Translations under genes and position numbers: made by a program
Assembly (NCBI RefSeq): GCF_965227005.1
Contig: NZ_CBDDFJ010000034.1
Span: forward strand, 56,855 to 96,854
DNA: 40,000 bases
DNA from: Roseococcus sp.
GTDB lineage: Bacteria; Pseudomonadota; Alphaproteobacteria; Acetobacterales; Acetobacteraceae
Reading direction: 5' to 3'
Part shown: positions 4,594-31,000 of the stretch, piece by piece
Position numbering within the stretch: position 1 is the first letter of the stretch
How the letters are laid out: every line of letters begins with the position of its first letter
Notes under the pieces: generated by a model
What the model was told of the DNA's origin: nothing
Database searches by the model: none
Seen by the model: only the letters and a program-made list of their open reading frames with translations

Positions 4594-4621
4594 GGTCGTA
4601 TCTCGCGGAGAGGTGGTCGGC

Positions 4622-5949: not shown

Positions 5950-6153
5950 GAATACCTCAGCATCGTTTGGTGTTGGGACGTTTATCTCTAGCCACATTAA
6001 GCGTCTAGAGGGTGGAATCACTAAATTTCCGTTTTTATTCAGTGATATACGCAGCCCACATTTGTAGGCGACACCTAATCAGCATCGGCGATATTTACTT
6101 CATACGAGTTGCGCCGGCTGATCTCGGGGTCTGCTTCGCGCCTACACCTCAGC

Positions 6154-6169
6154 CTGCACCCGGGTGCAG
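6154..6169. repeat. Palindrome family copy 3 (CTGCACCCGGGTGCAG, perfect 16 bp), upstream of the AlpA-like gene
   Basis: Perfect dyad read directly from the sequence, in the 6022-6699 gap. Confidence 0.7.
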
Positions 6170-6699
6170 AACCTGCCTCTTGATCGCAACCGAGTATGGA
6201 TCTCGTGCCCCGTCCAAAGGGAGCAGCCGGCGTTGCAGTACAGCGACCGACCGATGGCGTAGCCTTCTGCGGTGCCTGCTAGCGGTGCCCGTGCGACCTT
6301 GGCATCGCCTATCACGTACAAAAGCACGCCGGCGCGCAGCGGTGTGGCTAGGGCAGGAGGCGGAAGCAGAGCAGCACGCCGAGGGCGGTGACGACGAAGA
6401 ATCGCCAACCTTTGCCGGCCGCCCGCTGTCGTTCCCGTCCATATGGGCCGGAGCGTTGCCTGCTGTTCCGATGGGATTTGAACGAAATGCGTAGGTCGGC
6501 GAGTCTAGGACAGTATTGGGCGTTGGCGACCCTGGTGTTCTCCGACCCTGCGAATAGACGTATTGGCTTAAATAGCGCGTCTGAGCGATGATCCGCTCGT
6601 CAGTTGCCCGCTGTGGCCCTCCGACCGATCCGGCCCACGCCGGAGAGCGCGGGTATCACCACGCCGCGGTTACATCAATAACGGGGAAGCGATCGACCG

Positions 6700-9600
6700 G
6701 TGTTTGTAAAAGTTCGCAGCGGTGAAGGCATAGCGCTAGGTGTTGGCAAGCTGGTGCGACGCGAGGGCGACGCCTGTACGGTCGAGTTCTTCGAGGCTCC
6801 CATTACCCCGCTGGTCGTCCGACAAATGCGTGCTGGAGAGGTGGAACCCGCACCATTGCCTAGTCAGACTCGCGTCTACTACTTCGATCAGCGGACCGAT
6901 ACTTGGGAAATCGGCCGCGTTCTGGATGACCATGGTGACAGCCAACTCATCCAATTTCCGAATAGCAAGAGCCGGCACGTCAGGGTTAGCGAAGTGTTCG
7001 TCCGCTGGAGCCAGGAAGTCGGCGATCCGACGCCCTTCCTGGCGCACAAGATCAACGAGAGTCCTCGTTTTTCCGAGGGCCGCAGCGCATTCGTCCGTTC
7101 GCAAGTGGCGCAGCGGGCCGCTTCAATGGGCCTGTCGGCGCTCCTGGCATCCGCCATCGAACTTGAAGCGCACCAAATCGAAGTCGTGCGTCGGGTACTT
7201 CAGGATCCGGTGCAGCGCTACCTCCTCGCCGACGAGGTCGGCCTGGGTAAGACGATTGAAGCCGGAGTTCTCATCCGCCAATGCGTTCTGGACGCGCCGA
7301 ATGAAGCCGTCGTCCTGATCCTCGCGCCGGCTCCCCTCGTCCGTCAGTGGCGAGGGGAGCTTTCTAATCGGTTTTTCCTCGGGCCCTACCTCGACAAATC
7401 GATCCAAATCGTCGCGCTTGGTGATCATGCCACGACCACTCGATGGCTGCGGATCGCGACCATGTTGGTCATCGATGAGGCGCACCACCTGAGCCACACC
7501 ACTGACGGCAAGAAAATCTATCGCGAGATTGCCGCAGTGGCCCCGGCCATCGAGCGTGTGTTGCTGCTCTCAGCCACGCCTGCCCTTCACAACGAGCGTG
7601 GGTTTCTGGAGATGCTTCATCTCCTCGATCCGAGGGCCTATCCGCTTGACGATGAGGAAGCGTTTCGGCGCAAGGTGCGGGACCGGCAGGCCATTGCCGA
7701 GATCGTCGCGACCCTCACCCCGGAGAATGCGCTGCACCTCGACTATGTGCTCGATCAGCTCGGCAAGCTCTTCCCGGACGATGCTCTGCTCCAGGAGCAT
7801 GCCCAGGCGCTACGGTCGGTGTTGGATGCAATACCGACCGAGGACGATCCCGTGCTGATCGACGCGGTGGCCAAGGTTCATGCCCACCTGAGCGAGGTTT
7901 ATCGCCTCCACCGGCGCATTCTGCGCTACCGTCGGCGCAGCGTCAGCGGGCTCACGCCGGACCGGGCTGGGGTGCGAGTAATCAATTATCGTAGTCCCGG
8001 TCGCACGAACCTTATCGCGGCGCTGGAAGACTGGCGCTTCGTGGAGGCCTCGGCGCTGAGCGGGGTTACCGATGGCCAAGCCTGGACCCCGCCGGTGCAA
8101 ACATTCTGGAGCATGCTCGAGCGCGCCTCCGAGTATGCTCTGGTTTCGTCGGGGCGGGCGTCAAACGCCTTTGAGCGAACGGTGCATCTGGACGTCCACT
8201 TTAAGGAGCGACTGGATGCGCTGAGTCGTGCGCTGCCCGCGATGATGACCGATGGCGCGCATATCGTCCTGTTCTGTTCGGAGACGGCAACTGCTGACGC
8301 CATTTCGGTCGCACTCGGCAGGTCCCTCAGGGTTCCAGTCTATCGCCATCGCGCTGACGACGACGGCTGGCTCCAGTTTACCGAGGCGTCCGCGAATGCG
8401 GTCCTGGTATGCGATCGCCAGGCAGAGGAGGGTCTCAATCTTCAAGGTGGGCGGAAGATCGTGGTTCACTACGACCTGCCGCTCAATCCGAACCGGATCG
8501 AGCAGCGCCTTGGAAGGACAGATCGCTACGGCGCGGGCGATCCGGTCCTGTCAGTGGCGCTTCTATGTTTGGACGACCCCGTCGATCGGGCGTGGTTCGA
8601 GTACCTGAACACAGGACTCAGGCTGTTCGAGCGCTCGGTCGCCGGACTGCAGTACCTGATCGAGGACACCACTCTGCGGCTGGCTCCGGCAATGTTCGCC
8701 GATGGCGTCGAGGCACTGATCGAATTGACGGCGGCGAGCTTTGGCCCTGCCGGCCTCGTCGAAGGGGAGATGCGCGCGCTCGATCAACAGGACGCGCTCG
8801 ATTCACTGGGTGCGCCTCCGACGGCATTTTACGATCAGCTATCCGATCTCGACGCGGATTGGGCCGAAATCGCCGCCGCCACCACGCTCTGGATCGAGCG
8901 CACGCTGCAGTTCAGCCGCGTGGAGGAGGGCCAGGCCCCCGCCCGGTCAGGGAACGCTGGCCCATTTCGTTACCTTTACACCACCGACCACCCGCGTACG
9001 TTGATACCGCTCCCGGTCCTATTGGAGTTCTGCCGCCCGGCGCTCGACCTTTCGGTGGCGGCCCGGGGTGGCCGCGCAGTGCGAACCATCCCTTACGCCT
9101 TCAGCCGCCGGGTCGCGCTAGCCCGGAAGTCGCGTCGCGATGGGGTCGCCATGATGCGGTACGGCGATCCGTTCGTGGCAGGCATCACCGAGGTGACGCA
9201 AGCGGACGATCGCGGCCGAACCTTCGCCATGTGGCGCTACGTTCCCGGCTATCGCGCCGATCTGCTGGCGGATCTCCACTTCCGCTTCGATTTTGTGGTG
9301 GAAGCGGACGTGGCGGCGGCCGCCGCAGAACTCGCGGCGCGCGGCGTGGGCGGGGGCGCCTCGGCGGCTGCAGCCCGCCGCCGGGCCGACATGTCGCTTC
9401 CGCCGTTCTTCAAAACCGTCTGGCTCAACAGCGAACTGCTGCCGGTCGACGACCCGGACAAGCTCAAGGCCCTCGAACAGCCCTACGCTCCGGATGGCCG
9501 TGGCGCCGTGGGCCGCGACCTGAATCTGAACGCCCAGCGTTGGCGCCGTCTGAGTCGGCTCGACATACCTGAGTTAGAGAATTGGCCTGCGCTCTGTGCC

Positions 9601-9903
9601 GAGGCGCGCAAACGGGCGGAGGTGATCCTGCATGCCCGCGAGGATCTGGCCGAACGTCTGGCGCGCGCTGATCGCAGCGCAGCCGAGGTCGAACATGGCC
9701 GGCTCGGGCAACTTCGCGCCCGGGCGCGGGTCGAGGCGGCGTCCTTCGGCGATCCCGTCGCGGACTTGCAACTGGAGGAGGCTCTCTTCGCGGCATTGCG
9801 ATCGGGCATTCGCGCGCCGAGGATTCGGGTCGACTCCATCGGGGCCGTCTTCATGAGCGGCGATCGCGCCGCGACCGACGTCGTGGACGGCGGCGCCACA
9901 TGA
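6700..9903 (+). CDS. dpdE: SNF2-family helicase/ATPase, DpdE-type (first gene of the restriction operon)
   Basis: 1067 aa. GTG start with GGGGAAG ~10 nt upstream. SNF2 motifs: 'LLADEVGLGKTIEAG' (I), 'LVIDEAHHL' (II), 'LLLSATPALHNERGFLEMLHLLDP' (III), 'AVLVCDRQAEEGLNLQ' (V) and 'HYDLPLNPNRIEQRLGRTDRYG' (VI). Confidence 0.75.
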   Translation: MFVKVRSGEGIALGVGKLVRREGDACTVEFFEAPITPLVVRQMRAGEVEPAPLPSQTRVYYFDQRTDTWEIGRVLDDHGDSQLIQFPNSKSRHVRVSEVFVRWSQEVGDPTPFLAHKINESPRFSEGRSAFVRSQVAQRAASMGLSALLASAIELEAHQIEVVRRVLQDPVQRYLLADEVGLGKTIEAGVLIRQCVLDAPNEAVVLILAPAPLVRQWRGELSNRFFLGPYLDKSIQIVALGDHATTTRWLRIATMLVIDEAHHLSHTTDGKKIYREIAAVAPAIERVLLLSATPALHNERGFLEMLHLLDPRAYPLDDEEAFRRKVRDRQAIAEIVATLTPENALHLDYVLDQLGKLFPDDALLQEHAQALRSVLDAIPTEDDPVLIDAVAKVHAHLSEVYRLHRRILRYRRRSVSGLTPDRAGVRVINYRSPGRTNLIAALEDWRFVEASALSGVTDGQAWTPPVQTFWSMLERASEYALVSSGRASNAFERTVHLDVHFKERLDALSRALPAMMTDGAHIVLFCSETATADAISVALGRSLRVPVYRHRADDDGWLQFTEASANAVLVCDRQAEEGLNLQGGRKIVVHYDLPLNPNRIEQRLGRTDRYGAGDPVLSVALLCLDDPVDRAWFEYLNTGLRLFERSVAGLQYLIEDTTLRLAPAMFADGVEALIELTAASFGPAGLVEGEMRALDQQDALDSLGAPPTAFYDQLSDLDADWAEIAAATTLWIERTLQFSRVEEGQAPARSGNAGPFRYLYTTDHPRTLIPLPVLLEFCRPALDLSVAARGGRAVRTIPYAFSRRVALARKSRRDGVAMMRYGDPFVAGITEVTQADDRGRTFAMWRYVPGYRADLLADLHFRFDFVVEADVAAAAAELAARGVGGGASAAAARRRADMSLPPFFKTVWLNSELLPVDDPDKLKALEQPYAPDGRGAVGRDLNLNAQRWRRLSRLDIPELENWPALCAEARKRAEVILHAREDLAERLARADRSAAEVEHGRLGQLRARARVEAASFGDPVADLQLEEALFAALRSGIRAPRIRVDSIGAVFMSGDRAATDVVDGGAT

Positions 9904-12485
9904 CCGTTCTCGACTTCAGTTCGCTGCAGCGCCTATTCGACGCGTTTCCAGACGGACCAATCCCGTCGCGGGCCGAGGATGGAGTCTTCGACCGCCTGGG
10001 CCAGATCCTTGCGGCGTCGCGTGCGGCCGGTCGCCTAGTCTGCCAGACAGACCTCATGGCATTGGTGCGCCATGTCCTGCGCCGCCATTCGCTTCACGCA
10101 TCGCAACCCGCCCTGTTGGCCGTGCCAGTCGCTCAGGGGTGGCCAACCCGCGAGGGATGGGAGCAGTTTGGGATGCGCGCTCAGAGCGGCAGCACGGGGC
10201 GCTGGTTGATCGAGGCCAGACCCTGGCGGCCGGCGTGGGTGGCCGACTCTGACAACCCGATCTTTGAAGACGTGTTCGCGGAGCATCACGTTCGTTTGAA
10301 CTGGGTGCGGCCCATCGATCCATTCGTCGGCGAAGCCAGCCGGTTTGCCGACTACGTTTCGCCCGGGCAGCGCGAAGCGGTCCGCAGCGCGATCCTTCTG
10401 CCTCCTGGCGAGACGCTGATCGTCGGGCTGCCGACCGGGTCCGGAAAAAGCTTAGTCGCCCAGGCCCCGATGCTCATCGGTGGGCCGGAGGGAAGCTTGA
10501 GCGTCTGCGTCGTTCCCACGACGGCGCTGGCGATCGATCAGGCGAGACAGACGGCGGATCTCCTTAAGGCGCGCTTTCCCAATCGCGAGGTCCCGCCGCT
10601 GGCGTGGTTCTCGGGGCTCGACGAAGGGGCGCGCGTGGCAATCAAGAGGGCCATTCGCGAGGGCCGTCAGCGCATCCTCTACTGTTCGCCGGAAGCCATC
10701 ACCGGTGCGCTGCTGCCGACCCTGTATGAGTGCGCCAAGTCGGGTTTGCTGGCCTATCTTGTCATCGACGAAGCGCACCTGGTCAGCCAGTGGGGCGACG
10801 GCTTCCGGCCGGCCTTTCAAATGTTGGCAGGCGTTAGGCGCGGCCTCTTGGGCGCCTGCGCCGGCCCGCCCTTCAAGACCCTGCTGATGTCCGCGACGCT
10901 CACGCCCGACACGGTGCGGACCATTGAAACTTTGTTCGGTCCCGCCCGGACGACGCGCATGGTGGCGTCGATCTATCTGCGGCCGGAGCCGCAATACTGG
11001 TTTCATCGCGAAGACGATGCCCAGACGAAGACCCAAAAGGTGCTCGAAGCCCTCCGTCACGCGCCGCGCCCGTTCATCCTCTATGTCACAGAGCGCCGGG
11101 ACGCCCGCCGTTGGCTGAGGATACTGAAGGCGGAGGGATATGCGCGACTGGACTGCTTTCACGGTGAGACGCGTTCCTCAGACAAGGTCGCAATTATCGA
11201 TTCGTGGGCACACAATCGGCTGGACGGCATCGTCGCGACATCGGCGTTCGGGGTCGGGATCGATAAGCGCGACGTCCGCACTATCATTCACGCCGCGGTT
11301 CCGGAGACGCTGGATCGCTTCTACCAAGAGGTTGGTCGCGGCGGCCGCGACGGGCGGTGCTCGGCTGCCGTCATGATCTACTCGGCGGAGGATCGCGGTG
11401 CAGCAAGTCAAATCGCGTCCCCTTCGCTGATTGGGGAGGAACTAGGTTATGAACGGTGGGACGCGATGTACGCGCACGCCGAGCCCGTAGACCCCACAGG
11501 CCACTTGATGCGGCTGGACTTGAGCGTGGTGCCGCCGAGACTGCGCCGCCAGACCGACTACAACGCCGCTTGGAACATGCGAACGCTGATCATGATGGCG
11601 CGGGCCGGCATGCTCGACCTTGAGTCGGAGGCGCCGGAGCGCATCGCCCAGTTCGAGTCAGAAGCCGAGGCCGCGTTCGAGCTTCGCAACGAAGAGCATT
11701 GGGGTCGCTATTTCGGGCAGGTGCTGGTGCGCGTGAAGGAAGGCGCCCACCGCGACAAGGAGGTGTTCGACGCCATCATCTCCCAGGAGCGCACAAGGAC
11801 CTTCGAGGCCGCCAAAGCCGGCGAGGCAATGCTCGACGCCTTGCTTGACGGACGCGTGGAGGTGTCCGCGCTGCTCGACCGTCTCTATCGCAATCACGCC
11901 GACGGGCGTTCAGTGGCCGTGTCGAAGGCCTGCGGCGGGTGTCCTCAGCATCGGCGTGAGGGCGGGGTGCACACGCACTACGCTGAACCCGCCGCGTTCG
12001 GGATCGAGCAGGTCGGACGGCCCGACGCCGGGACTTGGCGGAGCCATTTCCCGCACCTGGACCTTGGTGCGCCCATCATTTTGGCGTTGCCAAAGGACGC
12101 TGAAGAGGATGGCGTTCTGCCGATTCTCGGAGACCTCGTCGCGTTGCTCGGCGTTCGAGAGGTCAGCGTGACGCGCCTGTTCCGAAGTCAAAACGTCGAT
12201 ATCGAGGCGCTTCACAAGCGCGCGCCCGACGGAGTCCTTCTCGTGCAGGATCTGGAGGAAGAGGAGGTCCGCGGTCCGACGTCTTACCAGTTGGCCCGCG
12301 CGAGCGTGTGGGACGCAGGCGAGCAGCAGCCGATACCCATGTTCCTGTTCGGGATGGATCGACCGCTCCACGTGATCCTCGTGGCCGCGACGACGCCGGA
12401 TCCTTGGCATCCTCAGCGCCGGCTCATCGACACCGGCGGGAATGTCCTGTCTTTCGATCAGTTCAAGTCAGGAGTTCGCGCATGA
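9900..12485 (+). CDS. dpdF: RecQ-like SF2 DNA helicase, DpdF-type
   Basis: 861 aa, with an ATGA overlap on the upstream stop. Motifs: 'GLPTGSGKSLVAQAP' (I), 'LVIDEAHLVSQWGDGFRPAF' (II), 'LLMSATLT' (III), 'IVATSAFGVGIDKRDVRTIIH' (V) and 'YQEVGRGGRDG' (VI). A ~350-aa C-terminal extension has no RQC/HRDC motif that I can see. Confidence 0.7.
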   Translation: MTVLDFSSLQRLFDAFPDGPIPSRAEDGVFDRLGQILAASRAAGRLVCQTDLMALVRHVLRRHSLHASQPALLAVPVAQGWPTREGWEQFGMRAQSGSTGRWLIEARPWRPAWVADSDNPIFEDVFAEHHVRLNWVRPIDPFVGEASRFADYVSPGQREAVRSAILLPPGETLIVGLPTGSGKSLVAQAPMLIGGPEGSLSVCVVPTTALAIDQARQTADLLKARFPNREVPPLAWFSGLDEGARVAIKRAIREGRQRILYCSPEAITGALLPTLYECAKSGLLAYLVIDEAHLVSQWGDGFRPAFQMLAGVRRGLLGACAGPPFKTLLMSATLTPDTVRTIETLFGPARTTRMVASIYLRPEPQYWFHREDDAQTKTQKVLEALRHAPRPFILYVTERRDARRWLRILKAEGYARLDCFHGETRSSDKVAIIDSWAHNRLDGIVATSAFGVGIDKRDVRTIIHAAVPETLDRFYQEVGRGGRDGRCSAAVMIYSAEDRGAASQIASPSLIGEELGYERWDAMYAHAEPVDPTGHLMRLDLSVVPPRLRRQTDYNAAWNMRTLIMMARAGMLDLESEAPERIAQFESEAEAAFELRNEEHWGRYFGQVLVRVKEGAHRDKEVFDAIISQERTRTFEAAKAGEAMLDALLDGRVEVSALLDRLYRNHADGRSVAVSKACGGCPQHRREGGVHTHYAEPAAFGIEQVGRPDAGTWRSHFPHLDLGAPIILALPKDAEEDGVLPILGDLVALLGVREVSVTRLFRSQNVDIEALHKRAPDGVLLVQDLEEEEVRGPTSYQLARASVWDAGEQQPIPMFLFGMDRPLHVILVAATTPDPWHPQRRLIDTGGNVLSFDQFKSGVRA

Positions 12486-13381
12486 GCGTCTTGAACCAGG
12501 CCAGCGACGGGCTCTTCAACGTACTCATCGTCCTTGTTCGGGTGATCATCCGGTTCGGCCCTCGCAACCGCGAGGACTTGCTGCGGGCCTGCGGTGCGGA
12601 CATCGCGTCCGTTAACGCCGGCATGCTGACAAACACACTGAACCGCTGGCAGGAGCTAGGTCTCTTCGAGACCCGCGACGGCATGGTGTCGCTTGCAGAT
12701 CCGCACCGAGCAGCGCTTGGGTCGACGGCCGACGTGGCGGAAGAACAGTTACCCAAGGTGGCGCGCACTATCGCCCTCGCCTCGGCTAACAACCTTCGCT
12801 TTTGGGAGAACGAGCGCGCCAAGAGCGCGGATCTCAGTCGCGGCGTGGCCTGGATGCTCGCCCAGGACATCTACGAACTCGACACCACGACGAACGGCCT
12901 CCAGGAACAGGAAACCCTACAATTTCGTGGCAAGACGAGCACGATCGTGCAGAACAACACGCGCTGGGCGGGTCTCCGAACATGGATGGGCTACCTTGGC
13001 TTCGGGCGCGAAGGCAGTCCTTGGCAGGTCGATCCGACCGAAGCCTTGCGAGACGCGCTGCCTGAGATCTTTGCAACCGATTGGACCTTGCCAGCGTCCG
13101 AATTTGTCGAGCGCGCCGCTAAGGTTCTTCCGGTCCTCGACGGCGGCGCCTACCGGCAAGAGGTGGAGACTGCACTTAAGGACACCGCTTGGGTCGGGCC
13201 GCGCGAGGGGATGCTCTCGACGTCGCTCTCGCGTGCCGTTCAGCGCCTCGACCGCGAGAAGGCGATTGAACTCAAACACGAGAGCGACACCGAGGACGCG
13301 CTTTCGCTTTCTGGGAGCGGCGGTCGAATCTGGCGCGACATAACCCATTTCGCTCTTACCCCGACGAAGGCGGTTCGGTGA
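12482..13381 (+). CDS. Hypothetical protein occupying the DpdG position
   Basis: 299 aa from ATG 12482 (ATGA overlap with the stop at 12485). The longer track ORF from 12308 lies inside the preceding gene. No motif recognised, so it is named by position only. Confidence 0.55.
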   Translation: MSVLNQASDGLFNVLIVLVRVIIRFGPRNREDLLRACGADIASVNAGMLTNTLNRWQELGLFETRDGMVSLADPHRAALGSTADVAEEQLPKVARTIALASANNLRFWENERAKSADLSRGVAWMLAQDIYELDTTTNGLQEQETLQFRGKTSTIVQNNTRWAGLRTWMGYLGFGREGSPWQVDPTEALRDALPEIFATDWTLPASEFVERAAKVLPVLDGGAYRQEVETALKDTAWVGPREGMLSTSLSRAVQRLDREKAIELKHESDTEDALSLSGSGGRIWRDITHFALTPTKAVR

Positions 13382-21739: not shown

Positions 21740-22275
21740 CCTTCGAGACGCGCCGGATCTTCAAGAGCGCGGTGACCAGTCAGAATCTAATCCGCGAACT
21801 TCTGCAGCTCATGTTTCTTGGGGAATACCTCGCGCCGGGAGGGGATCGCGCCTGGCTGGTGAGTCCGTGGGTCAGCAATGTGGTCCTGCTCGATAACCGC
21901 GCAGGCGGTTTCAGCTCAATCAATCCCGATTGGCGACAAGGGGAGATCCGGTTGGCGGAGCTGATGACCGACCTCATGGCGCGAGGCACCTCCCTTGGGC
22001 TGGCGACCAACCACGACGCCCACAACGATCCCTTCATCGAGCGCTTAACCACAGCCGCGCAGGAAAGCGCCGTCGCTGAGAAGCTTACCGTCGTGCGCCG
22101 GCAGCACCTGCACACCAAAGGCGTCCTGGTGAAGCGCGGCCTGCTCACCGGCTCGATGAACCTGACCTACCGCGGACTCGAACTGAACGATGAGGTGGTG
22201 GTTTACGACACTGTTCCGAAGACGCTGGCCGAGGCGCGGCTAAACTTCGAGTCCTATCTGGGGTCGACCGAGTGA
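21736..22275 (+). CDS. dpdK: Small phospholipase-D-family (Nuc-like) nuclease, DpdK-type
   Basis: 179 aa from ATG 21736 (ATGA overlap). A single HKD-type motif, 'HLHTKGVLVKRGLLTGSMNLT' (HxK...GSxN), is encoded at 22111-22161. Confidence 0.7.
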   Translation: MTFETRRIFKSAVTSQNLIRELLQLMFLGEYLAPGGDRAWLVSPWVSNVVLLDNRAGGFSSINPDWRQGEIRLAELMTDLMARGTSLGLATNHDAHNDPFIERLTTAAQESAVAEKLTVVRRQHLHTKGVLVKRGLLTGSMNLTYRGLELNDEVVVYDTVPKTLAEARLNFESYLGSTE

Positions 22276-24518
22276 TCCACGGCCTTCCCGAGACCGAAGC
22301 GGTGTGGCTGCGCGCATTCTTCTCAGACCCCAACGCCCTGCACTGGGGTGATTTGATTAGCGGCGTCGTGCCTGCCCGTCTCGCGGACCAAGTGCGGCCC
22401 TGGGTCGAGACCCTGGTCTCTGGCCGCGGCGCTACCGCGATCGTTCTCCCGTTCGTGCGGGAGGGCGTAATCGTCGGGTGGTACGCGTCGTCGAGGGGCA
22501 CCGATGGCAGCCAAGAGCTTGGCGATGAGCTGCAAGCCTGGCTTGGCCCCAACCTTTTGAAGATGGTGCGCCAGTTGCCCTTGGCCGCCGGCGATCCGAT
22601 GGCGCGGGCCATGACGAGCCGCTTCGGCACGCGCGTGTGGCGGTTCGCGGGGGCGGATGCAGTGGGTAACCAAGCGATTGTCACCAAGGTGGCCGAGTAT
22701 GGCGCGCTGCTCGCACGGCGGCCGTCGCTCACCCGTCGATACGCCCGCCCAGTCGGCAGCATCCGGGCGGAATTCGAGCGCGCACTCCTCGCCCAAGATG
22801 AAGCCCACGCCGAGGCTATGATCGCCGAGTTGCGCGGTACCGGGCGCTTGAACGAGGAGAACCTTCGCTACCTCGACGTGCGGCTGAAAGCCGGTTTGGG
22901 CCTTTGGCCGCAGATCGCCCGAGACAATTGGCTAATCTCGACACTCTCGGATTTGGCCTTACCGCCACAGGTGCTATCCGACCTAATCGAGGCGCTCTAC
23001 CGCACCTTCATCGATGAACTTGAGGCCAGCGTCGACCCGGTGGCGGCGCTCCGCGTCTTCAGTGAGGCGGTATCCGGCCGGTACCCACGGCTGTTTGCGT
23101 CCCGGCGCGGCCTGCGCACGCCGCGCGTCGTCAAGGCGTTCCTGCTGTTCGAGCGCCTGCAGCCGCGACCCAACGCGCATATCTTGTTCGACCTCGCTGC
23201 CCTACTATCGGCCTCCGATCGCGCCAGTGCCTTCGTGCAGGCGCTATCCGCGATCAAGACGGTGGAGCCGCCGACCGAAGGCGACGCCGATCTCGCCTTC
23301 GACGACAGGCAGTTCGACCGGGCATTTGAGTTCTATATCGTGCTCAGACCGGACCGCAAAACAGCGAGCCGATTGCTGTCGTGCGTCCTCGCCATCGGGA
23401 CGCCCGACGCGCGGCAGCGTTTCAGAACCTGGATCGACGGCGCCGGCGACGCCTTCCTCGCGAGCCTCCCGCCGGCGGTTCGCGAGAAGATCGAAAGTCT
23501 GGACGCCGCGGATCAGAGCGCCGTAATCGCGGCGGTCGACCCCGACCGTTGGATGTACTGGGCGCGGCGTCTGCAGTCGGGCGGCGATCTTGCGGCAGCG
23601 GAGCTGGCGGTTCGAGATGGCGCGACGACATGGGACGCCTCGCCCTATCTGACGAGCGAGTCGCGGTCCCAAGAGTTGGCGGACCTGCTCGGCAATCTGC
23701 AGGGCGAACCCGCTGAGGTCCTCCGGCGATCGTTCGCGCAGATCTTCGCTGCTTTCTTTCCCGAGGATGCCGCGCCTGAACGGTCAACGCGACCGATCGC
23801 CAACATGCTGTTCCTGCTGCTTGCGCTAGACGACGCCTTGTCCGCGGCCGACCTCGCTCTACTGGAACAGTTGCTGACCCGTCTCCTCGGCCTCGGGCTG
23901 TCGGAGGCGGACTATGTCTCGCTCGTCGGCGATCTATCGGAGGTTCAAGGGCGGATTGCGTCCTATGCGCACCTCGCCTGGAGCCTGGATGTGTGCGAGG
24001 CGCTCGCGGTCGCGCCCAGTCCCTCGACGGCCTCGCGGGAGGCTCGGCTGCGCTTCTTCCTCAGCGTGCTGGTGCAGGCCCAGGGCTTCGGCCACCGACT
24101 GCTGGCGCCCGACCTCCTCGTCATCGAATACTTGGCCAAAGACTTCGGCGTGGACACCGAGGCGATCACCTCGCTGCGCCGCGCCAGCGAAGCGGTGGGC
24201 GCTGATTTGACCGGCCCTGACTTGAGTGGGAAGACGATCGGCATTTACACCCTGGCGGAGGCCGCTGGGCTCCGCGCCAAGCAACTGCTCAAGACACTTT
24301 ATCCCGGTTGCGACGTCCAGCTGAATTCAGACCTAGTCTGCACTTCGGCTCTGACCAGTCTCGCGCAGGCATCGGACGTCTTCGTGTTCGCATGGAAGAG
24401 CAGCAGCCACCAAGCGTACTATTGCGTGAAGACGGCGCTGACGAAGTGCGATCTGATCTATGCGGCCGGCAAAGGTACGGCCAGCATATTGGCCGCCGTG
24501 CGCGAGGCTATCGAGTGA
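22272..24518 (+). CDS. Hypothetical 748-aa protein, last gene of the restriction operon; possible DpdD equivalent
   Basis: GTGA overlap with the PLD gene. The C-terminal ~100 aa ('KTIGIYTLAEAAGLRAKQLLKTLYPGCDVQLNSD...ASDVFVFAWKSSSHQAYYCVK...IYAAGKGTASIL') look like a small Rossmann-like, DUF2325-type module. The rest is unrecognised. Confidence 0.45.
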   Translation: MIHGLPETEAVWLRAFFSDPNALHWGDLISGVVPARLADQVRPWVETLVSGRGATAIVLPFVREGVIVGWYASSRGTDGSQELGDELQAWLGPNLLKMVRQLPLAAGDPMARAMTSRFGTRVWRFAGADAVGNQAIVTKVAEYGALLARRPSLTRRYARPVGSIRAEFERALLAQDEAHAEAMIAELRGTGRLNEENLRYLDVRLKAGLGLWPQIARDNWLISTLSDLALPPQVLSDLIEALYRTFIDELEASVDPVAALRVFSEAVSGRYPRLFASRRGLRTPRVVKAFLLFERLQPRPNAHILFDLAALLSASDRASAFVQALSAIKTVEPPTEGDADLAFDDRQFDRAFEFYIVLRPDRKTASRLLSCVLAIGTPDARQRFRTWIDGAGDAFLASLPPAVREKIESLDAADQSAVIAAVDPDRWMYWARRLQSGGDLAAAELAVRDGATTWDASPYLTSESRSQELADLLGNLQGEPAEVLRRSFAQIFAAFFPEDAAPERSTRPIANMLFLLLALDDALSAADLALLEQLLTRLLGLGLSEADYVSLVGDLSEVQGRIASYAHLAWSLDVCEALAVAPSPSTASREARLRFFLSVLVQAQGFGHRLLAPDLLVIEYLAKDFGVDTEAITSLRRASEAVGADLTGPDLSGKTIGIYTLAEAAGLRAKQLLKTLYPGCDVQLNSDLVCTSALTSLAQASDVFVFAWKSSSHQAYYCVKTALTKCDLIYAAGKGTASILAAVREAIE

Positions 24519-24820
24519 TCTTAGCCATCGGGGCGTTGGCGCCGCCCTCGCAGATCACCCGATCAACCGCACCGGCGAGCTCGCGCCTAGGAACCTGCGG
24601 CCCGAAACCACCTGAGCGCGTCAAGCCGCCGCGACCGCAGCCGTCGGTGAACGCTTACCTATTACGACCGCTCAGCGAAGTAATGGGCGCATTGGCGCTG
24701 ACCTCTGAAGTGAATGCGTGGAGCACAGTTTTCGCTCAAACGTTTCCAGCCGCGGCTAACGAACCGCTGGTGACTCGGATGAAGCAGTTGGACTTTTCTG
24801 ATCTGGGGCGGCGCGCCCCG

Positions 24821-25522
24821 TTAGGCGGCTGCCGCCTCCCAGGCTTGGTGTCCTCTTGCGCGCAAATCGCAAGCGGGGCACTCGCCGCAGCCATATCCCC
24901 AATTATGACGGCGTTCCCTGGCGCCTTGATAACAGGTGTGGGTATGCTCGACGACGAGGTCCGTCAGGCGCTCGCCGCCCAGATCTCTAGCGAGAGTCCA
25001 AGTGGCAGCTTTGTCGATCCACATCAGCGGGGCCTCGAGCACAAACCGGCTCTCCATCCCGAGATTCAGGACCACCTGCAGCGCTTTTATCGTATCGTCC
25101 CTGCAGTCGGGATATCCGGAGTAATCGGTCTCGCAGACGCCGGTAACGATGTGCTTCAGGCCGCGCCGATAAGCAATTGCAGAGGCTAGCGTGAGAAAGA
25201 CGATATTGCGGCCAGGCACGAAGGTGTTCGGCAGGCCGGACGCCGTGGCCTCGATCTCTAGATCGCGCGTGAGCGCAGTTTCGCTGACCTGGCCCAGCAC
25301 GGCTAGATCGAGGACGTGATCTTCGCCGAGCTTTTCGGCCCAGGTCGGGAAGCCGCGTCTTAATTCCTGAAGGAATGCTTGGCGGACATCGAGTTCGATC
25401 GCATGACGCTGGCGATAATCAAAGCCGACGGTTTCGACAGTCGCGAACCGAGCGAGCGCCCACGCCAGGCAGGTAGCGGAGTCTTGCCCGCCTGAAAACA
25501 ATACCAGCGCGCCGCCGCTCAT
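24821..25522 (-). CDS. queC: 7-cyano-7-deazaguanine (preQ0) synthase QueC
   Basis: PP-loop '[19 protein letters not shown]' and C-terminal Zn cysteines 'CYQG...[10 protein letters not shown]'. Start set at ATG 25522 (MSGGALVLF), 5 nt after the queD stop. The ORF is open to 25555. Confidence 0.9.
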
Positions 25523-25527
25523 GCCGC

Positions 25528-25896
25528 TTAATCCTCTCGGCCGAAATAGCTGCACGCGCCCTGATCGCTGTCGCGACGCACGGTCACGCGCCAGAGGTTA
25601 GGGCAAACAGGCTCGACCTTGCGCCAGATCCAGGTCGACAGGTTTTCCATCGTCGCGGGGCCAAGGTCATTGAGTTCGTCGAGGAATCGATGATCGAGGC
25701 CCTCCCGAGCAGATTCCAGCGCACGCTCGAAGATCCCTAGGTCCATGATCATTCCGGTCTGAGGATCGGGGCGGCCTCGAAGCACCACCTCGGCTCGGTA
25801 AGAATGGCCATGGATTCGGCGGCTCGACTCTGTGTCGATCACCCGTTCCAGCGTATGCGCCGCGTCGAAGCGAAATTCCTTGCTGAGTTCGAACAT
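25528..25896 (-). CDS. queD: 6-carboxy-5,6,7,8-tetrahydropterin synthase QueD
   Basis: 122 aa. '[15 protein letters not shown]' and '[13 protein letters not shown]' are PTPS-fold QueD signatures. Its ATG overlaps the queE stop by 1 nt. Confidence 0.88.
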
Positions 25897-26531
25897 CAGG
25901 GAATCCCCAAGACTTTATGTGATTGGAGGGAGAGTCGCCAACGCGGGTTGGCAAGACAGTAGGCCACGGCAGCGGATGTGTTGGCCGCAAGGTTGGGCCC
26001 ATCCATCGGCTGCAGAAGGAAATGGGTGAACGCTAGGTCTTCGAAGCGGTCCGGCGGCGCCTCGGGTTGGGGATAGACCAGCTTGAGTTCGTCCCCCTGC
26101 TGGATCTGGAGTTTTGCGTCCGCCTTTGGGCTGACCGCAATCCAATCGAGCCCAGCCGGCGCGGGGAGGGTGCCGTTCGTCTCCACAGCCACCTCGAAGT
26201 CCAGGGCGTGCAGGCGCTCGATGAGCGGTTCGTCGACCTGCAGCAGAGGTTCGCCGCCGGTCAGCACGACGAGGCGGCGGCCTCCCCGGCCAATCCAGGC
26301 GTCGGAGATCGCTTGGCCAAGGGCCGCGGCGTCCCGGAATCGCCCGCCTCCCACGCCATCAACGCCGACGAAGTCGGTGTCGCAGAAACGGCAAGTGGCT
26401 GTTCCTCGATCCTGCTCGCGGCCACTCCAGAGATTGCAGCCCGCAAAGCGACAGAAGACGGCAGGGCGACCCGCGTGCCGGCCCTCCCCCTGCAGCGTGT
26501 AAAAGATCTCTTTGACGGCGTATGCGACCAT
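25896..26531 (-). CDS. queE: 7-carboxy-7-deazaguanine synthase QueE (radical SAM)
   Basis: Start ATG 26531 ('MVAYAVKEIFYTLQGEGRHAGRPAVFCRFAGC...'). The cluster motif is in the CX14CX2C form (C-NLWSGREQDRGTAT-C-RF-C). The track ORF extends to 26663, but that part overlaps the upstream gene. Confidence 0.88.
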   Translation of the reverse strand: MVAYAVKEIFYTLQGEGRHAGRPAVFCRFAGCNLWSGREQDRGTATCRFCDTDFVGVDGVGGGRFRDAAALGQAISDAWIGRGGRRLVVLTGGEPLLQVDEPLIERLHALDFEVAVETNGTLPAPAGLDWIAVSPKADAKLQIQQGDELKLVYPQPEAPPDRFEDLAFTHFLLQPMDGPNLAANTSAAVAYCLANPRWRLSLQSHKVLGIP

Positions 26532-26533
26532 TG

Positions 26534-27616
26534 TCAGGCTGCCCGCTCTTGTGCGGCGAGTGCTGCCTTGATGACGTCGAGGAGATAGAAGGACAGTTGG
26601 CGGACATCCGCGGGGACGTTCTGCAAGCCGTTCCATCGCCGGCGTTCGTCGCGGAAGTTCCACTCACCGGAGGACCAGGCTGTCTTGCCCTTTAGCAGGC
26701 GCAGCCCGCGCGCGAACTCGTCGCGAGTTTCGGCGCCGGTGACGGCGTTAAGGTAATCCATCACGTAGCCCAGGGCGATGATGCCTGTCCCATGGATGAG
26801 CCGGGAGTCCTTGGGGGTCTTCCCATCCCAATCGGAGACGAAAACGGCCTGCACAGCGTGCCAATATTCGCTGATCAGTTCGACGCCCTTGCTCAGCAGC
26901 AACGCGTCGTCGCCGGCGTAGAGACGCAGGGCGCCATCGCTTAGCGAGTTCATGATGACCCGTTGGAGAACCGTGTCGCGGATCACGCCCTTCGGGTTCG
27001 TCTGCTGCTTAATCAGGCCCTTGAGCGCTGAGCCCGCGCGGTAGTTCAAGGCTTCGGTGAGCAGCGCAGCCTGAGATCGGCTGGACATCCGCAGCGGCAG
27101 GTCGGCGACCTGCGGCAGCAATTCATAGATGAGCGCCTTCGGCAGGGGCCGTGTGTTGTTGATGAGGATGAACTGCTTTTGGAGTTCTTCCTCCGTCTCA
27201 CACAGGAAGCCGGAGACCAGCACCTCGAACTCCCGTCCGCAGAGCTCCGACAGCGCCGTGAAGCGCTGCTGTCCATCGACGATCCAACCGGGCGGCCCCT
27301 CAGTGATGTCGATCTTTAGGCGTCGCGATCCGCTCGCCTCGCGAGACGGCTCGAGTGCGGCCTTGCCCAGGAAGGCCACGACGATCGGATTGGGCAGGAT
27401 CGCGTTGGGCTTCTCGAGATAGTCGCGGATCTCCCGTATGTGGGCGGCGATTTGCGGGCGCTGGAAACCCTGCAGCATGCCGTCGGCGGCGCGCCCGGCG
27501 CGTTCGATCCGGACGATCCGGACGATGTCGGCGGCCTTCGCCACGAAGGTGAAGACGGTCAGATTGCGGCTTTGAGCCGGGACCAGGACGTCGAATGAAA
27601 GATGAGTCTCGCTCAT
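26534..27616 (-). CDS. dpdB: DGQHR-domain (ParB/DndB-like) protein, DpdB-family paralog 2
   Basis: 360 aa from ATG 27616 (ATGA overlap with the dpdA stop). 'GMLQGFQRPQ', 'WIVDGQQRFTAL', 'QFILINNTRPL' and 'DSRLIHGTG'. It is a clear paralog of 28899-30041. Confidence 0.7.
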   Translation of the reverse strand: MSETHLSFDVLVPAQSRNLTVFTFVAKAADIVRIVRIERAGRAADGMLQGFQRPQIAAHIREIRDYLEKPNAILPNPIVVAFLGKAALEPSREASGSRRLKIDITEGPPGWIVDGQQRFTALSELCGREFEVLVSGFLCETEEELQKQFILINNTRPLPKALIYELLPQVADLPLRMSSRSQAALLTEALNYRAGSALKGLIKQQTNPKGVIRDTVLQRVIMNSLSDGALRLYAGDDALLLSKGVELISEYWHAVQAVFVSDWDGKTPKDSRLIHGTGIIALGYVMDYLNAVTGAETRDEFARGLRLLKGKTAWSSGEWNFRDERRRWNGLQNVPADVRQLSFYLLDVIKAALAAQERAA

Positions 27617-28902
27617 ACGGTTTCCCGCCGAAATTCGTTGAGGTGAGTGTGGAAGACATGGAGGTTGTGGATGCCGCGCCGCTTGTTGCGGTTCGAAGTT
27701 CGGAAGATCAGCGCCTCGACACCGCTCTCCCGACAGACGCGACACCCGCAATGCTCCCACGGTCGGTCGGTCAAGGTCTTAGCATAGACTTTTCGCTGTC
27801 GCGCCGCCGCTTCGGCGCGGCGGGTGGGCGAGGTCTCTTCGTCCCAGTTAAGCGCGGCCCAATAGGCCATGACGGCATCCAGGCTCTGATCGAGGGTGGC
27901 CTCGCCCGTTGAGTAGGCCCTCACGCTTTTGAGCGCGACATCTTCGAGGTGGCGCGCCGCCTCTTGGTTCAAGCTGCCCTCAAGCGCCTTATGCTTAAGC
28001 TTGTTATTCTCAATGGCCTGAGGAATGCGGATAGCCGTGTAGTAGGATAGATCGCCGTCCGAGGTCCGCGCCCAGTAGTTTTTGCGCGCGTCCTTGAAGG
28101 CCCGCAGCAGCGGCGACGTCGTGTCGAAGCTGCTGACGCCAAACTCCTCTAAAGATCGAAGCTCTTCGATCTTCCCAAAGCCCAGCAGGTGGAGCCGCAC
28201 CGAGTTCGGCAGAGCGTCCCGTACCGCCGCCAGGACCCGCCGAATCTGATCGATCTTCAGTGGGACAGTCCCACCAATGGCCAGATAGTCGAAGCCCATC
28301 GCGGCGAGCTGGCGGGCGGCGTCGGCCATGCTCCGGGTCGACCAGCCCTGGATAACCCCCATCGGCGTGAAATCAGGACCCAGCCGCGCGGCCTCGGCGA
28401 AGAACTCCGCGCCATTCTGAAGCGTAATCTCGTACCGCCGGCGGACGTCTTCGGGCACATCGATCAGCGCTCGTTCGATGCCCACTTCGTCGAAATCGAA
28501 GATGAGGTGGTCGGGCGCACAGCCATGGGAGAAGCCTCCGTCGGCGTAGAATTCTACGGTGTCGCCGGCTCTGTACGGAGGTTCAGGAAAGTTGCGATAC
28601 GTAAAGGCCCCGCAGTCCCCCATCATTATACTGTCTGGGAATCGCTCTAGCGGGTAACGCAGAAACCTGCGGGCGCCCTCGCGCCGAAACCGCATCAACT
28701 GCGCCTCTGAATACTTCCCAGGATAGCGAGCGTCGCCGACGATCCCGCGCGACACTAGTATGCCATCGTAGGGCGCCCGATCGAGAAATTCGTGCGGATA
28801 CTGATCGTCGCGGTGGACCGTGCGGCCTGTGCCATTTCGGTCGGCGACGAAGTTGTAGGCCGGGTCGATCGTATCAAGACTGTCGGCGAATAGGAACTTC
28901 AC
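27613..28902 (-). CDS. dpdA: tRNA-guanine-transglycosylase-like DNA transglycosylase DpdA
   Basis: 429 aa with a GTG start. TGT-type Zn motif 'CGCRVC...(x)n...HNLH' near the C-terminus and 'MMGDCGAFTY' resembling the TGT catalytic-Asp loop. It is flanked by DGQHR genes and co-operonic with queCDE. Confidence 0.8.
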   Translation of the reverse strand: MKFLFADSLDTIDPAYNFVADRNGTGRTVHRDDQYPHEFLDRAPYDGILVSRGIVGDARYPGKYSEAQLMRFRREGARRFLRYPLERFPDSIMMGDCGAFTYRNFPEPPYRAGDTVEFYADGGFSHGCAPDHLIFDFDEVGIERALIDVPEDVRRRYEITLQNGAEFFAEAARLGPDFTPMGVIQGWSTRSMADAARQLAAMGFDYLAIGGTVPLKIDQIRRVLAAVRDALPNSVRLHLLGFGKIEELRSLEEFGVSSFDTTSPLLRAFKDARKNYWARTSDGDLSYYTAIRIPQAIENNKLKHKALEGSLNQEAARHLEDVALKSVRAYSTGEATLDQSLDAVMAYWAALNWDEETSPTRRAEAAARQRKVYAKTLTDRPWEHCGCRVCRESGVEALIFRTSNRNKRRGIHNLHVFHTHLNEFRRETV

Positions 28903-30041
28903 GAGGCCACCTTCGCGAACGCGTAAAGGTGATCGAGCCGCGCCAGATGACCGGCCAGGAGCTTGATGTCGCGCGAGATGTTCTGGATCTCGTTCCAGTC
29001 CCGCTGCAGTTCATTCCAGCGGCCCGATGTCCAGCGACAGTGCGGAGCGATGCGGCTCAGCGCCTCGTAAGCATGGGCCAAAAGATCGGCGCCGGGCGCA
29101 GCGCGCGACATTACCCGATCCATCAGCAAGCTCATCGCTTCCACGCCCGCAGAATGCATAAGCCGGCTATCAGTCACAGGGCGTCCCCAGGCCTCGGGAA
29201 AAGCGGCCTTCACCGCAGTCCAGAAGGCCACGAGGATCCGGTACATGCCGTCGACATCGGTCTGCTGACCGCCGCCCGCCCTGAGCGGGCCAAGAGCGCC
29301 GAGGCCGCTGCTGATGCTCTGACGAATGCCCTTAATCAGAGCGCTATCGATGATGACGCCGCCGCCCTCGTCTTCCGAAACTCGCCGAATCATGCCCCGC
29401 AGCGGAGAATCCGTCGCGGTCTGAAGCCGATGTACCAGCAGGCTGGGGATTTTGCGGGCGGCCAGGTCACGCGGAAAATGAGCGTCGACCTCTGGCAGCA
29501 GCTCATTAATCAGCCGCGGATCAAGCGGCTTGGCCTTGTTGACCAGGATGAACTGCTCGCGATGGACAGATAGTTCCTCCGAGGCAAAGGCGACGACTGG
29601 GACCGGGAAACCCTGATCCTTGGCTCGAGACAGGGCCAAGGAGCGCTGCTGTCCGTCGACGATCCAGGCCGCGCGGCTGCCATCGGTTGGCATCGGCATG
29701 CGCAGGGTTCCAGCTTCCGCCACGCGTAGATCGCCCGACGGCCGCTCGCCTCGCGCAGCGGTAAACCTGGCCCGCGGCGAGATCGCGAGAATGATGGAGT
29801 TGGGGAAAAGTACCGGACCTTGGTCAAGGAACTCGGTGATGGACTGAACGTGGCTCCGAATCCCCTTGCGCTGGAAGCCCTGCATGCCGCCATCGGCGTC
29901 GCGACGCACGCGTGAGATATCAGCGACCTTCAAGAGGTCGGCGCCGGCGAGAAAGAAGGCATAGACCGCTTTATCTGCCTGGTAAGTTCGAACGGCGCGC
30001 ACCGCCAAGGTGGGCTCGCTCATCGTCTTAGGACGCGTCAT
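28899..30041 (-). CDS. dpdB: DGQHR-domain (ParB/DndB-like) protein, DpdB-family paralog 1
   Basis: 380 aa. 'GGMQGFQRKG', 'WIVDGQQRSLAL', 'QFILVNKAKPL' and 'DSRLMHSAG'. ATGA overlap with the upstream gene and GTGA overlap with dpdA. Confidence 0.72.
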   Translation of the reverse strand: MTRPKTMSEPTLAVRAVRTYQADKAVYAFFLAGADLLKVADISRVRRDADGGMQGFQRKGIRSHVQSITEFLDQGPVLFPNSIILAISPRARFTAARGERPSGDLRVAEAGTLRMPMPTDGSRAAWIVDGQQRSLALSRAKDQGFPVPVVAFASEELSVHREQFILVNKAKPLDPRLINELLPEVDAHFPRDLAARKIPSLLVHRLQTATDSPLRGMIRRVSEDEGGGVIIDSALIKGIRQSISSGLGALGPLRAGGGQQTDVDGMYRILVAFWTAVKAAFPEAWGRPVTDSRLMHSAGVEAMSLLMDRVMSRAAPGADLLAHAYEALSRIAPHCRWTSGRWNELQRDWNEIQNISRDIKLLAGHLARLDHLYAFAKVAS

Positions 30042-31000
30042 GAACAGTCACCTTCCGACTGGGCTTGGCGAAAGAGCTTTGCAAAGCGGCCTTGCTCACA
30101 GGCGATCTGGTCGTCGTCCCGCAGGCGCCGCAGCAACTGGCTCGCGCTTGCACGCGGATGAAGCCGAGACCGGATCACGGCCAGTAGGGCCTCATCGGTC
30201 GCGGTGCTCCGCACAGGGCGCAATGGCGACTTTGACTTGGCCATCGCGCGTCGGACCCATTCGGCGTCCAAGGAAATGTCTCCGTCCTGCGGAGCGATGT
30301 TTCGACTGAAATGCACCAAGGCGCGCTGTGCGAAGTCAGATCGCGTGCCAGGAAAGATCGTGTCGAGCCGGTCATCGTAAGGAAGGAGGAATGGCTTCAG
30401 AACGGCCGGCAACACTCCTCCAAGCCCGGCACCGAAGATTCGCAGGCGGCTCAGCGCCGAGGCGGGAACGGCGGCCAGGCTTTGGGACGCCATCTCAGCG
30501 TAGGGCTTGGTTACGGCGAATAACACGCGACCGTTGACGCTTGAAAACGCGTCAGACCATTGCGCCGAGTAGGGGCTCGCCAGAAGTCTCCTGAACCATT
30601 CCGGCGGATCGAAGGCGTCGATGACCCTGTTCCGAATGGAGTCCGTATCCCCCCGCGCGACCGTCAGGCTGTAGCCGGGCACGGCTGTGCTCCCCGCGAC
30701 TAGGCCAAGTCCCGCGGAAACCACAAACAATTTGGCGCCGGTTTGCGCAGCCGCATCGCGAGCCAAGGCAAAAGCTCGACCCGCATACAGTTTAGTCGCG
30801 GGAGTCGTGGGGAACGCTGCCGAAATCTGCCACAGCCAACGCGACGCGACATCCGCTTGGGGCGCGAAAGGAAGAGCGGCAGGTGTTCCTTCAGAGGTCG
30901 GGGGGAGCCGCTTTTGGTTGGTGCAGATGGTAACGATCGCCGCGACGGTTGCGGTCGAGCGCTGAACGTTGGGTTCAATAACTGCGTACTCCCGTGTCAT
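30038..31000 (-). CDS. Hypothetical protein, first gene of the modification operon; DpdC candidate by position only
   Basis: 320 aa. 'VTICTNQKR...LYAGRAF...LFVVSAGLGLV...PGYSLTV'. No catalytic motif that I can name with confidence. The C-terminal ~60 aa ('TDEALLAVIRSRLHPRASASQLLRRLRDD') look HTH-like. Confidence 0.45.
   Translation of the reverse strand: MTREYAVIEPNVQRSTATVAAIVTICTNQKRLPPTSEGTPAALPFAPQADVASRWLWQISAAFPTTPATKLYAGRAFALARDAAAQTGAKLFVVSAGLGLVAGSTAVPGYSLTVARGDTDSIRNRVIDAFDPPEWFRRLLASPYSAQWSDAFSSVNGRVLFAVTKPYAEMASQSLAAVPASALSRLRIFGAGLGGVLPAVLKPFLLPYDDRLDTIFPGTRSDFAQRALVHFSRNIAPQDGDISLDAEWVRRAMAKSKSPLRPVRSTATDEALLAVIRSRLHPRASASQLLRRLRDDDQIACEQGRFAKLFRQAQSEGDCS

Follow-up and report, generated by a model that had tools for sequence, protein, structure and literature searches.

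A window of 40,000 nucleotides from Roseococcus sp. (contig NZ_CBDDFJ010000034.1) carries, between positions 6700 and 31000, a set of genes assigned to the Dpd (7-deazapurine in DNA) restriction-modification families. Fifteen intact genes were recognized in this region from a six-frame list of open reading frames (ORFs) and from profile searches. Nearly all of the 15 proteins are placed in Dpd families by curated profiles, DpdI and QueD alone scoring under the cut-off, and the E-values of the family matches are far beyond chance. Every gene that an earlier note had described from the letters of this DNA was found intact and in its place by the ORF list and the profiles. The profile searches against NCBIfam and Pfam, which that note had proposed as a check, returned Dpd identities and located the SNF2 and PLDc_2 domains. 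The genes on the plus strand run in the order dpdE-F-G-H-I-J-K-D, as follows.

6700-9903, plus strand: dpdE, SNF2-type helicase/translocase (NCBIfam DpdE 962 bits, cut-off 500; Pfam SNF2-rel_dom, ResIII and Helicase_C; motifs DEVGLGKT and DEAH).
9900-12485, plus strand: dpdF, RecQ-like superfamily 2 (SF2) helicase (NCBIfam DpdF 892 bits, cut-off 550; Pfam DEAD and Helicase_C; motifs TGSGKS and DEAH).
12482-13381, plus strand: dpdG, 299 amino acids (NCBIfam DpdG 305 bits, cut-off 80; PADLOC DpdG 179 bits).
13378-16473, plus strand: dpdH, large P-loop nucleoside triphosphatase (NTPase) (NCBIfam DpdH 820 bits, cut-off 450; Pfam AAA_22; PADLOC DpdH 440 bits; motif GPSGIGKS).
16470-17189, plus strand: dpdI-like gene, divergent, 239 amino acids (NCBIfam DpdI E-value 3e-22, 79.7 bits, cut-off 150; profile positions 2-239 of 239).
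17189-21739, plus strand: dpdJ, 1,516-amino-acid YprA-family DEAD/DEAH helicase (NCBIfam DpdJ 1809 bits, cut-off 800; Pfam DEAD, ResIII and Helicase_C; motifs AGTGSGKT and DEVH).
21736-22275, plus strand: dpdK, small phospholipase D (PLD)-family nuclease (NCBIfam DpdK 195 bits, cut-off 100; Pfam PLDc_2; PADLOC DpdK 170 bits; one HxK...GSxN motif).
22272-24518, plus strand: dpdD, 748 amino acids, last gene of the operon (NCBIfam DpdD 535 bits, cut-off 300; PADLOC DpdD 237 bits).

Converging on these genes from the minus strand is the series dpdC-dpdB1-dpdA-dpdB2-queE-queD-queC.

30038-31000, minus strand: dpdC, DUF6884 protein (PADLOC DpdC PDLC02815 E-value 1e-80, full length; Pfam DUF6884 31.2 bits, cut-off 30).
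28899-30041, minus strand: dpdB1, ParB-like DGQQR ATPase, upstream of dpdA (NCBIfam DpdB 423 bits, cut-off 300; PADLOC 412 bits).
27613-28902, minus strand: dpdA, DNA-guanine transglycosylase (NCBIfam DpdA 528 bits, cut-off 200).
26534-27616, minus strand: dpdB2, ParB-like DGQQR ATPase, downstream of dpdA (NCBIfam DpdB 381 bits, cut-off 300; PADLOC DpdB 387 bits).
25896-26531, minus strand: queE, radical S-adenosylmethionine 7-carboxy-7-deazaguanine synthase of the Cx14CxxC type (TIGR04508 345 bits, cut-off 240).
25528-25896, minus strand: queD-like COG0720 protein (TIGR03367 QueD 70.7 bits, cut-off 89; TIGR00039 80.9 bits, cut-off 125.5).
24821-25522, minus strand: queC, 7-cyano-7-deazaguanine (preQ0) synthase (TIGR00364 207 bits, cut-off 150; motifs SGGQDS and CGECPAC).

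At all plus-strand junctions the next start codon overlaps the preceding stop by 1 or 4 nt, the ATG of dpdF, for instance, overlapping the stop of dpdE by 4 nt. Overlaps of 1 or 4 nt are also found at the dpdC/dpdB1, dpdB1/dpdA and dpdA/dpdB2 junctions, where the ATG of dpdB2 overlaps the dpdA stop by 4 nt; both dpdB1 and dpdB2 are thus translationally coupled to dpdA. The queE, queD and queC genes follow dpdB2 at spacings of a few bases, and queC could alternatively start at a GTG at 25555. Because start/stop overlaps run through both gene sets, the arrangement fits two translationally coupled convergent operons, which are separated by a gap of 302 bp (24519-24820). Consensus scans of this gap and of both operon leaders revealed no promoter-like sites and few terminator-like hits, none of them informative on the operons. 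An Rfam scan of the window found no preQ1 or other riboswitch, a tRNA being its sole match.

The gene at 27613-28902, which had been described as resembling tRNA-guanine transglycosylase (TGT) and as carrying a CxCxxC...H motif, was confirmed as dpdA, with the zinc motif at residues 385-413 of its product. The sole solved relative of the protein is the DNA-guanine transglycosylase of Salmonella Montevideo (PDB 7UI4; E-value 5e-90). Residues shown or proposed to be important in the Salmonella enzyme are Asp95, Asp130, Asp256, Gly206-Gly207, Leu236 and Phe99 (PMC10164549), and D96, D131, D260, G210-G211, L240 and F100 of the window protein align with them. Both catalytic aspartates, the base-binding aspartate, the Gly-Gly loop and the zinc ligands are conserved. 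The dpdC product had no match among NCBIfam models and was recognized over its full length by the PADLOC profile. By analogy with the Salmonella system, it is predicted to turn preQ0 in DNA into the amide (ADG) form.

For comparison with the Salmonella type, the Salmonella DpdA sequence was taken from the PDB alignment, back-translated and used to search for dpdA in 159 complete Escherichia coli genomes. E. coli CFSAN061772 (NZ_CP042893) encodes a DpdA 93% identical to the crystallized S. Montevideo protein. Its cluster consists of dpdC-dpdA-dpdB and the convergent series dpdD-K-J-I-H-G-F-E, and a lone queD lies past dpdE. The protein at the dpdC position is annotated as hypothetical and is also a DpdC (PADLOC DpdC 470 bits). 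The window and the E. coli/Salmonella type share the same DpdA-K families, although DpdI of the window is hardly recognizable, the two convergent operons and the restriction order E-F-G-H-I-J-K-D, as well as a dpdC upstream of dpdA and a dpdB directly downstream. Both also have in common the catalytic residues and zinc site of DpdA and the DGQQR motif of DpdB. In contrast to the E. coli cluster, an extra DpdB1 lies between dpdC and dpdA in the window, and the modification operon also takes in queE-queD-queC, where E. coli has the lone queD past dpdE. The proteins of the two clusters are 28-39% identical, DpdJ reaching 37% over its full length and DpdI showing no detectable similarity. The integration sites also differ, being tRNA-Arg in the window and the leuX region in Salmonella (PMC5699537).

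Relatives were collected by scanning one genome per species with back-translated DpdA peptides, including PMGVIQGW, which flanks Gln185 of the window protein; 76 loci encoding DpdA relatives were obtained, and 10 kb was fetched on each side. The best DpdA relative is that of Acidisphaera rubrifaciens (90%). The module dpdC-dpdB1-dpdA-dpdB2-queE-queD-queC occurs in roughly 60 alpha-, beta- and gammaproteobacterial loci, and the convergent dpdJ-dpdK-dpdD arm was seen in 13 loci within the 10 kb fetched per side. Other two-DpdB clusters, such as those of A. rubrifaciens HS-AP3, Mesorhizobium, Methylosinus, Lysobacter and Stenotrophomonas, have the identical modification module with a DpdA 50-90% identical to that of the window. 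They differ from the window in their hosts and insertion sites, and about half keep a Cys in the QueD motif. On a plasmid of Caulobacter sp. S6 (NZ_CP073079, locus 25100-40759), a near relative of the modification module, its DpdA 84% identical to that of the window, stands beside a different putative restriction arm. This arm consists of a DpdF-like helicase, three hypothetical proteins, a 2,100-amino-acid AAA-domain protein and a 760-amino-acid hypothetical protein, without DpdE, J, K or D. In several other related loci, DpdF alone is visible after queC.

DpdB1 and DpdB2 are 33% identical to each other, and both contain DGQQR, a motif tied to NTPase activity (PMC10164549) and found intact in every one of 137 related DpdB sequences. 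In a neighbour-joining tree the upstream (65) and downstream (68) DpdB sequences form two clean clades, DpdB1 of the window falling in the upstream clade and DpdB2 in the downstream one. The E. coli DpdB and four single-copy Acidimicrobiia DpdBs lie near the root of the tree, between both clades, and the E. coli protein is 38% and 35% identical to the two DpdBs of the window. Mean identity is 58% within each clade, so the two are equally conserved. A DpdB is encoded on both sides of dpdA in 62 of the 76 loci, and the downstream copy alone is found in nine. Since the clades are clean and equally conserved and DGQQR is retained in all 137 sequences, DpdB1 and DpdB2 are, on this comparative evidence, an ancient conserved paralogue pair under selection. 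A recent local duplication of dpdB was also considered and is ruled out by the 33% identity and the two clades. In four of the nine loci with the downstream copy alone, all Sphingomonas-type, DpdB1 is missing and dpdC abuts dpdA; DpdB1 is therefore dispensable in some lineages, and DpdB2 is retained. Extra dpdB copies are also on record elsewhere, 801 of them among 2,335 unique dpd islands (PMC12235509), and RefSeq labels both copies DpdB on a Caulobacter plasmid.

These comparisons bear on two features that the earlier note had singled out as non-canonical. The supposed relocation of the DpdD-like gene is not upheld, because the convergent layout and the E-F-G-H-I-J-K-D order, with dpdD after dpdK, match the E. 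coli cluster. Similarly, the duplicated DpdB turns out to be the conserved pair just described and not a peculiarity of this copy.

In the restriction operon, the NCBIfam profiles of DpdD, E, F, G, H, J and K are covered end to end. DpdK, with its single PLD motif, is likely to be the cutter. For DpdG, an AlphaFold2 model was obtained with a mean predicted local distance difference test (pLDDT) of 83.6 and a predicted template modelling (pTM) score of 0.86. Its best PDB fold match is the domain, built of two winged helices, by which the restriction enzyme BpuJI recognizes DNA (E-value 0.01, probability 0.99, template modelling score 0.36), followed by winged helix-turn-helix regulators of the MarR, DtxR and IclR types. 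The model thereby gives a weak but coherent hint that DpdG may be a tandem winged-helix DNA binder. The DpdD model (pLDDT 85, pTM 0.47) consists of an N-terminal alpha/beta domain, a helical-repeat core at residues 160-640 and, at the C terminus, a small alpha/beta domain rich in invariant residues. Compared with PDB folds, it gave only TPR/HEAT-like matches, none at E<=0.001, and no nuclease fold. As modelled, DpdD looks more like a scaffold than a cutter.

Both operons lie on an integrative element, whose features in the window are the following.

2916-2992, plus strand: tRNA-Arg(CCT), the integration target (ARAGORN; Rfam tRNA 68 bits).
2978-2992: left direct repeat CCGCCGGGGACACCA, the last 15 nt of the tRNA-Arg gene (exact match).
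33830-35176, minus strand: tyrosine integrase (Pfam Arm-DNA-bind_3, Phage_int_M and Phage_integrase; NCBIfam integrase domain).
35336-35350, plus strand: right direct repeat CCGCCGGGGACACCA, the right island boundary (exact 15-bp copy).

The right repeat lies 160 bp past the integrase gene, and the two 15-bp repeats enclose 32.4 kb. At the left repeat the G + C content falls from 0.70-0.77 to about 0.52, and at the right repeat it rises from about 0.5 to 0.65-0.70; the island interior has 0.58-0.69 and the flanks 0.67-0.73. The flanks carry housekeeping genes, encoding a DinG-like helicase, an ABC transporter and a luciferase-like monooxygenase. A lone 15-mer match across 33 kb has no significance by itself; here the repeat coincides with the tRNA end, the integrase and the G + C steps, and the 32.4-kb island at the 3' end of tRNA-Arg is therefore convincing.

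The region 6700-31000 is thus very probably an intact bacterial Dpd restriction-modification system carried on an integrase-bearing tRNA-Arg island. The earlier proposal of a complete Dpd system on an integrative island is supported by the profiles, the active-site checks and the synteny with the 76 loci and the E. coli cluster. For this locus the genes were identified and their motifs found intact, and the structure of the operons, the boundaries of the island and the conservation of the architecture were established. Its predicted biochemical outcome, with dPreQ0 and dADG in DNA and restriction of unmodified DNA, is drawn from the work on Salmonella, which comprises the biochemistry of DpdA, DpdB and DpdC and the genetics of DpdD-K (PMC10164549; PMC5699537). 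By that precedent, preQ0 would be made by QueE, QueC and the QueD-like protein, with FolE, the GTP cyclohydrolase of the host, feeding the pathway. DpdA, with its TGT fold, would then exchange selected guanines in double-stranded DNA for preQ0, and the exchange would be driven by ATP hydrolysis in the ParB-like DpdB, represented here by DpdB1 and DpdB2. The products of dpdE-F-G-H-I-J-K-D would restrict unmarked DNA, as suggested by Salmonella genetics and by their domain content only. Three members of this set would be SF2 helicases/translocases and one a P-loop NTPase, together with a PLD nuclease, a helical-repeat protein and a protein predicted to bind DNA through winged helices. In a working model, the helicases and the NTPase would scan or translocate on DNA, DpdG or the terminal domains of DpdJ might read the mark and DpdK would cut; the domain content of this half is observed and the remainder is inferred.

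Several observations weigh against a fully functional system of the Salmonella type, and the preQ0 genes supply some of them. The QueD homologue reads SRRIHGH (SxxxHGH) in place of the signature CxxxHGH with its catalytic Cys. Published signatures are CxxxHGH for QueD (PTPS-I), CxxxxxHGH for PTPS-II and ExxHGH for PTPS-III (PMC5041015), and the latter two are also absent from the sequence. Because its homologue is without the signature Cys, the island may have to draw on a host QueD for preQ0. The island also carries no folE. The zinc-binding HGH and the downstream LDH are retained. Of the related dpd loci, 28 have Ser at the motif position and 24 have Cys, while six have Tyr, His or Leu there; since Ser is conserved among them, the Ser form is probably functional, and a Ser-His-Asp arrangement could take the place of Cys-His-Asp. 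The earlier listing of queE, queD and queC beside dpdA therefore stands for the location of all three genes and needs qualification for the missing QueD signature.

Further points of this kind concern DpdA and DpdI. Gln185 of the window DpdA replaces His181, a base-contacting residue of the crystallized Salmonella enzyme. Bacterial tRNA-guanine transglycosylase has Gln at this position, and the replacement is therefore probably benign rather than a defect. The DpdI score of 79.7 bits falls under the curated cut-off of 150, and the protein has no PADLOC or Pfam match and no BLASTP match to its E. coli counterpart. Its gene lies between dpdH and dpdJ, the same position as in E. coli. The positional counterpart there is annotated as hypothetical and scores 40 bits on the PADLOC DpdI model. 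Judging from these scores, DpdI is poorly conserved family-wide. In addition, since the proteins are only 28-39% identical to those of the E. coli/Salmonella type, target specificity and activity levels may differ from that type.

Membership of DpdA in the TGT superfamily, together with queC, queD and queE, which are common to the tRNA queuosine pathway, would also suit a minus-strand operon for queuosine tRNA modification (tgt plus queCDE) that leaves DNA unmodified. On the DpdA equivalog, however, DpdA reaches 528 bits, compared with 33 bits for the bacterial Tgt model, whose cut-off is 307, and 30 bits for archaeal TgtA, whose cut-off is 350; because the Tgt-model score is far beneath the cut-off, the protein is no tRNA enzyme. 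Among solved structures the DNA-guanine transglycosylase 7UI4 is the closest to it, and its gene is flanked by those for DpdB and DpdC and faces dpdD-K; the chance that this operon serves tRNA is negligible. The DpdA1-4 systems of phages, which include preQ0 or archaeosine pathways, likewise combine a TGT-fold DNA transglycosylase with preQ0 genes (PMC10516641), whereas the window protein is of the bacterial bDpdA type by its NCBIfam equivalog. A separate DISARM- or BREX-like system that merely lies beside a deazaguanine module is another reading of the plus-strand operon, and a very improbable one. Dpd has several components in common with DISARM and BREX: DpdE corresponds to DrmD as an SNF2/BrxHII-like helicase and DpdK to DrmC as a PLD nuclease, DpdJ is a helicase of the YprA family, and DpdH/I are the counterpart of the BrxC-like NTPase. 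Comparative work has linked DpdE with BrxHII, DpdH/I with BrxC and DpdJ with YprA helicases of DISARM that have a PLD partner (bioRxiv 10.1101/2025.09.15.676423). DpdE matches the DISARM DrmD models at 149 and 111 bits, and DpdK matches DrmC at 30 bits. The DrmD cut-offs, however, are 610 and 950, and for every protein the Dpd equivalog score is far above the DISARM or BREX scores, these being far under their cut-offs. The self-mark also differs, DISARM and BREX using a methyl group and Dpd a 7-deazaguanine inserted by transglycosylation. The scan of the window ORFs turned up neither a methyltransferase nor PglZ or DrmA/B, and by scores and gene content the locus does not qualify as DISARM. 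The pairing of the arm with the dpdA module, moreover, recurs in related loci and in E. coli.

An unlikely alternative, though less remote than these two, accepts the modification of DNA and denies that the eight-gene arm performs classical restriction of unmodified DNA; the arm might instead act only on phage replication intermediates or in genome maintenance, or might be silent in this host. The restriction mechanism is uncharacterized family-wide, and PDB searches returned no solved structures for relatives of DpdB, D, G, H or J. Related loci exchange the restriction arm for other gene sets and retain the modification module, which means that the two halves are separable. All eight arm genes are nevertheless intact, full-length and translationally coupled, and they keep the same order in the window and in E. 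coli, with the proteins 28-37% identical, which speaks for selection acting on a shared function. In Salmonella, furthermore, the restriction phenotype was assigned genetically to dpdD-K (PMC10164549), and restriction by the window's arm is the reading preferred here. A more ambitious interpretation of the modification half can be put forward only tentatively and is rather doubtful. It would make DpdB1 and DpdB2 an obligate hetero-oligomeric clamp or loader for DpdA and the mark of a distinct, widespread two-DpdB subtype, with target selection or modification density unlike that of the single-DpdB Salmonella system and with the Cys-less QueD as part of its adapted preQ0 supply.

The window copy, real but ordinary, is a complete Dpd island of standard make, with the two-DpdB architecture common among Proteobacteria. 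The Dpd family is already known, and most of the window genes are named outright by the NCBIfam models of the NCBI genome annotation. The island adds one further intact example, from an Acetobacterales host, of integrative elements that target tRNA genes and carry the full 11-family system together. Specialists may be interested in the DpdB1/DpdB2 pair and in the Cys-less QueD, both of which are subclade-wide rather than specific to the window. The copy is useful as a representative of the two-DpdB, queEDC-linked architecture, which is common in Proteobacteria, whereas the biochemistry was done on the single-DpdB Salmonella type. The question in the field is how DpdD-K distinguish modified from unmodified DNA and cut, and to that question the window copy offers no easier route than others.

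The island carries further cargo outside the Dpd region. A reverse transcriptase ORF of 465 amino acids (3274-4671, minus strand) matches RVT_1 at 71 bits and the group II intron reverse transcriptase/maturase model at 63 bits (cut-off 300), with weak PADLOC matches to generic reverse transcriptase, Drt9 and UG17. The small ORFs that follow it (4690-6494) gave no family matches. Between dpdC and the integrase lie a 626-amino-acid ORF (31308-33188, minus strand) and an overlapping 122-amino-acid ORF (33181-33549, minus strand). The two gave no match in Pfam, NCBIfam or PADLOC, and the larger one also has none among PDB sequences. Eighteen homologues of the 626-amino-acid protein, all unannotated, were found in a set of 5.8 billion proteins, one of them (Roseococcus sp.) being 100% identical; by this match too, the host is probably a species of Roseococcus (Acetobacterales). 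The earlier note had counted a neighbouring reverse transcriptase and an orphan nuclease among the features of this Dpd copy. The reverse transcriptase ORF is indeed present; no nuclease signature was detected in the 626-amino-acid ORF, and because both ORFs are missing from all of the related dpd loci, they are unrelated island cargo.

An 18-bp perfect palindrome, TCTGCACCCGGGTGCAGA, recurs in the same cargo at the following positions.

4622-4639: copy of TCTGCACCCGGGTGCAGA.
5669-5686: copy of TCTGCACCCGGGTGCAGA.
6153-6170: copy of TCTGCACCCGGGTGCAGA.
33698-33715: copy of TCTGCACCCGGGTGCAGA.

These four copies, at <=2 mismatches, compare with 0.03 expected. All are in non-Dpd cargo, three around the reverse transcriptase and the small ORFs and one between the 122-amino-acid ORF and the integrase, and they could be operator sites or hairpin terminators.

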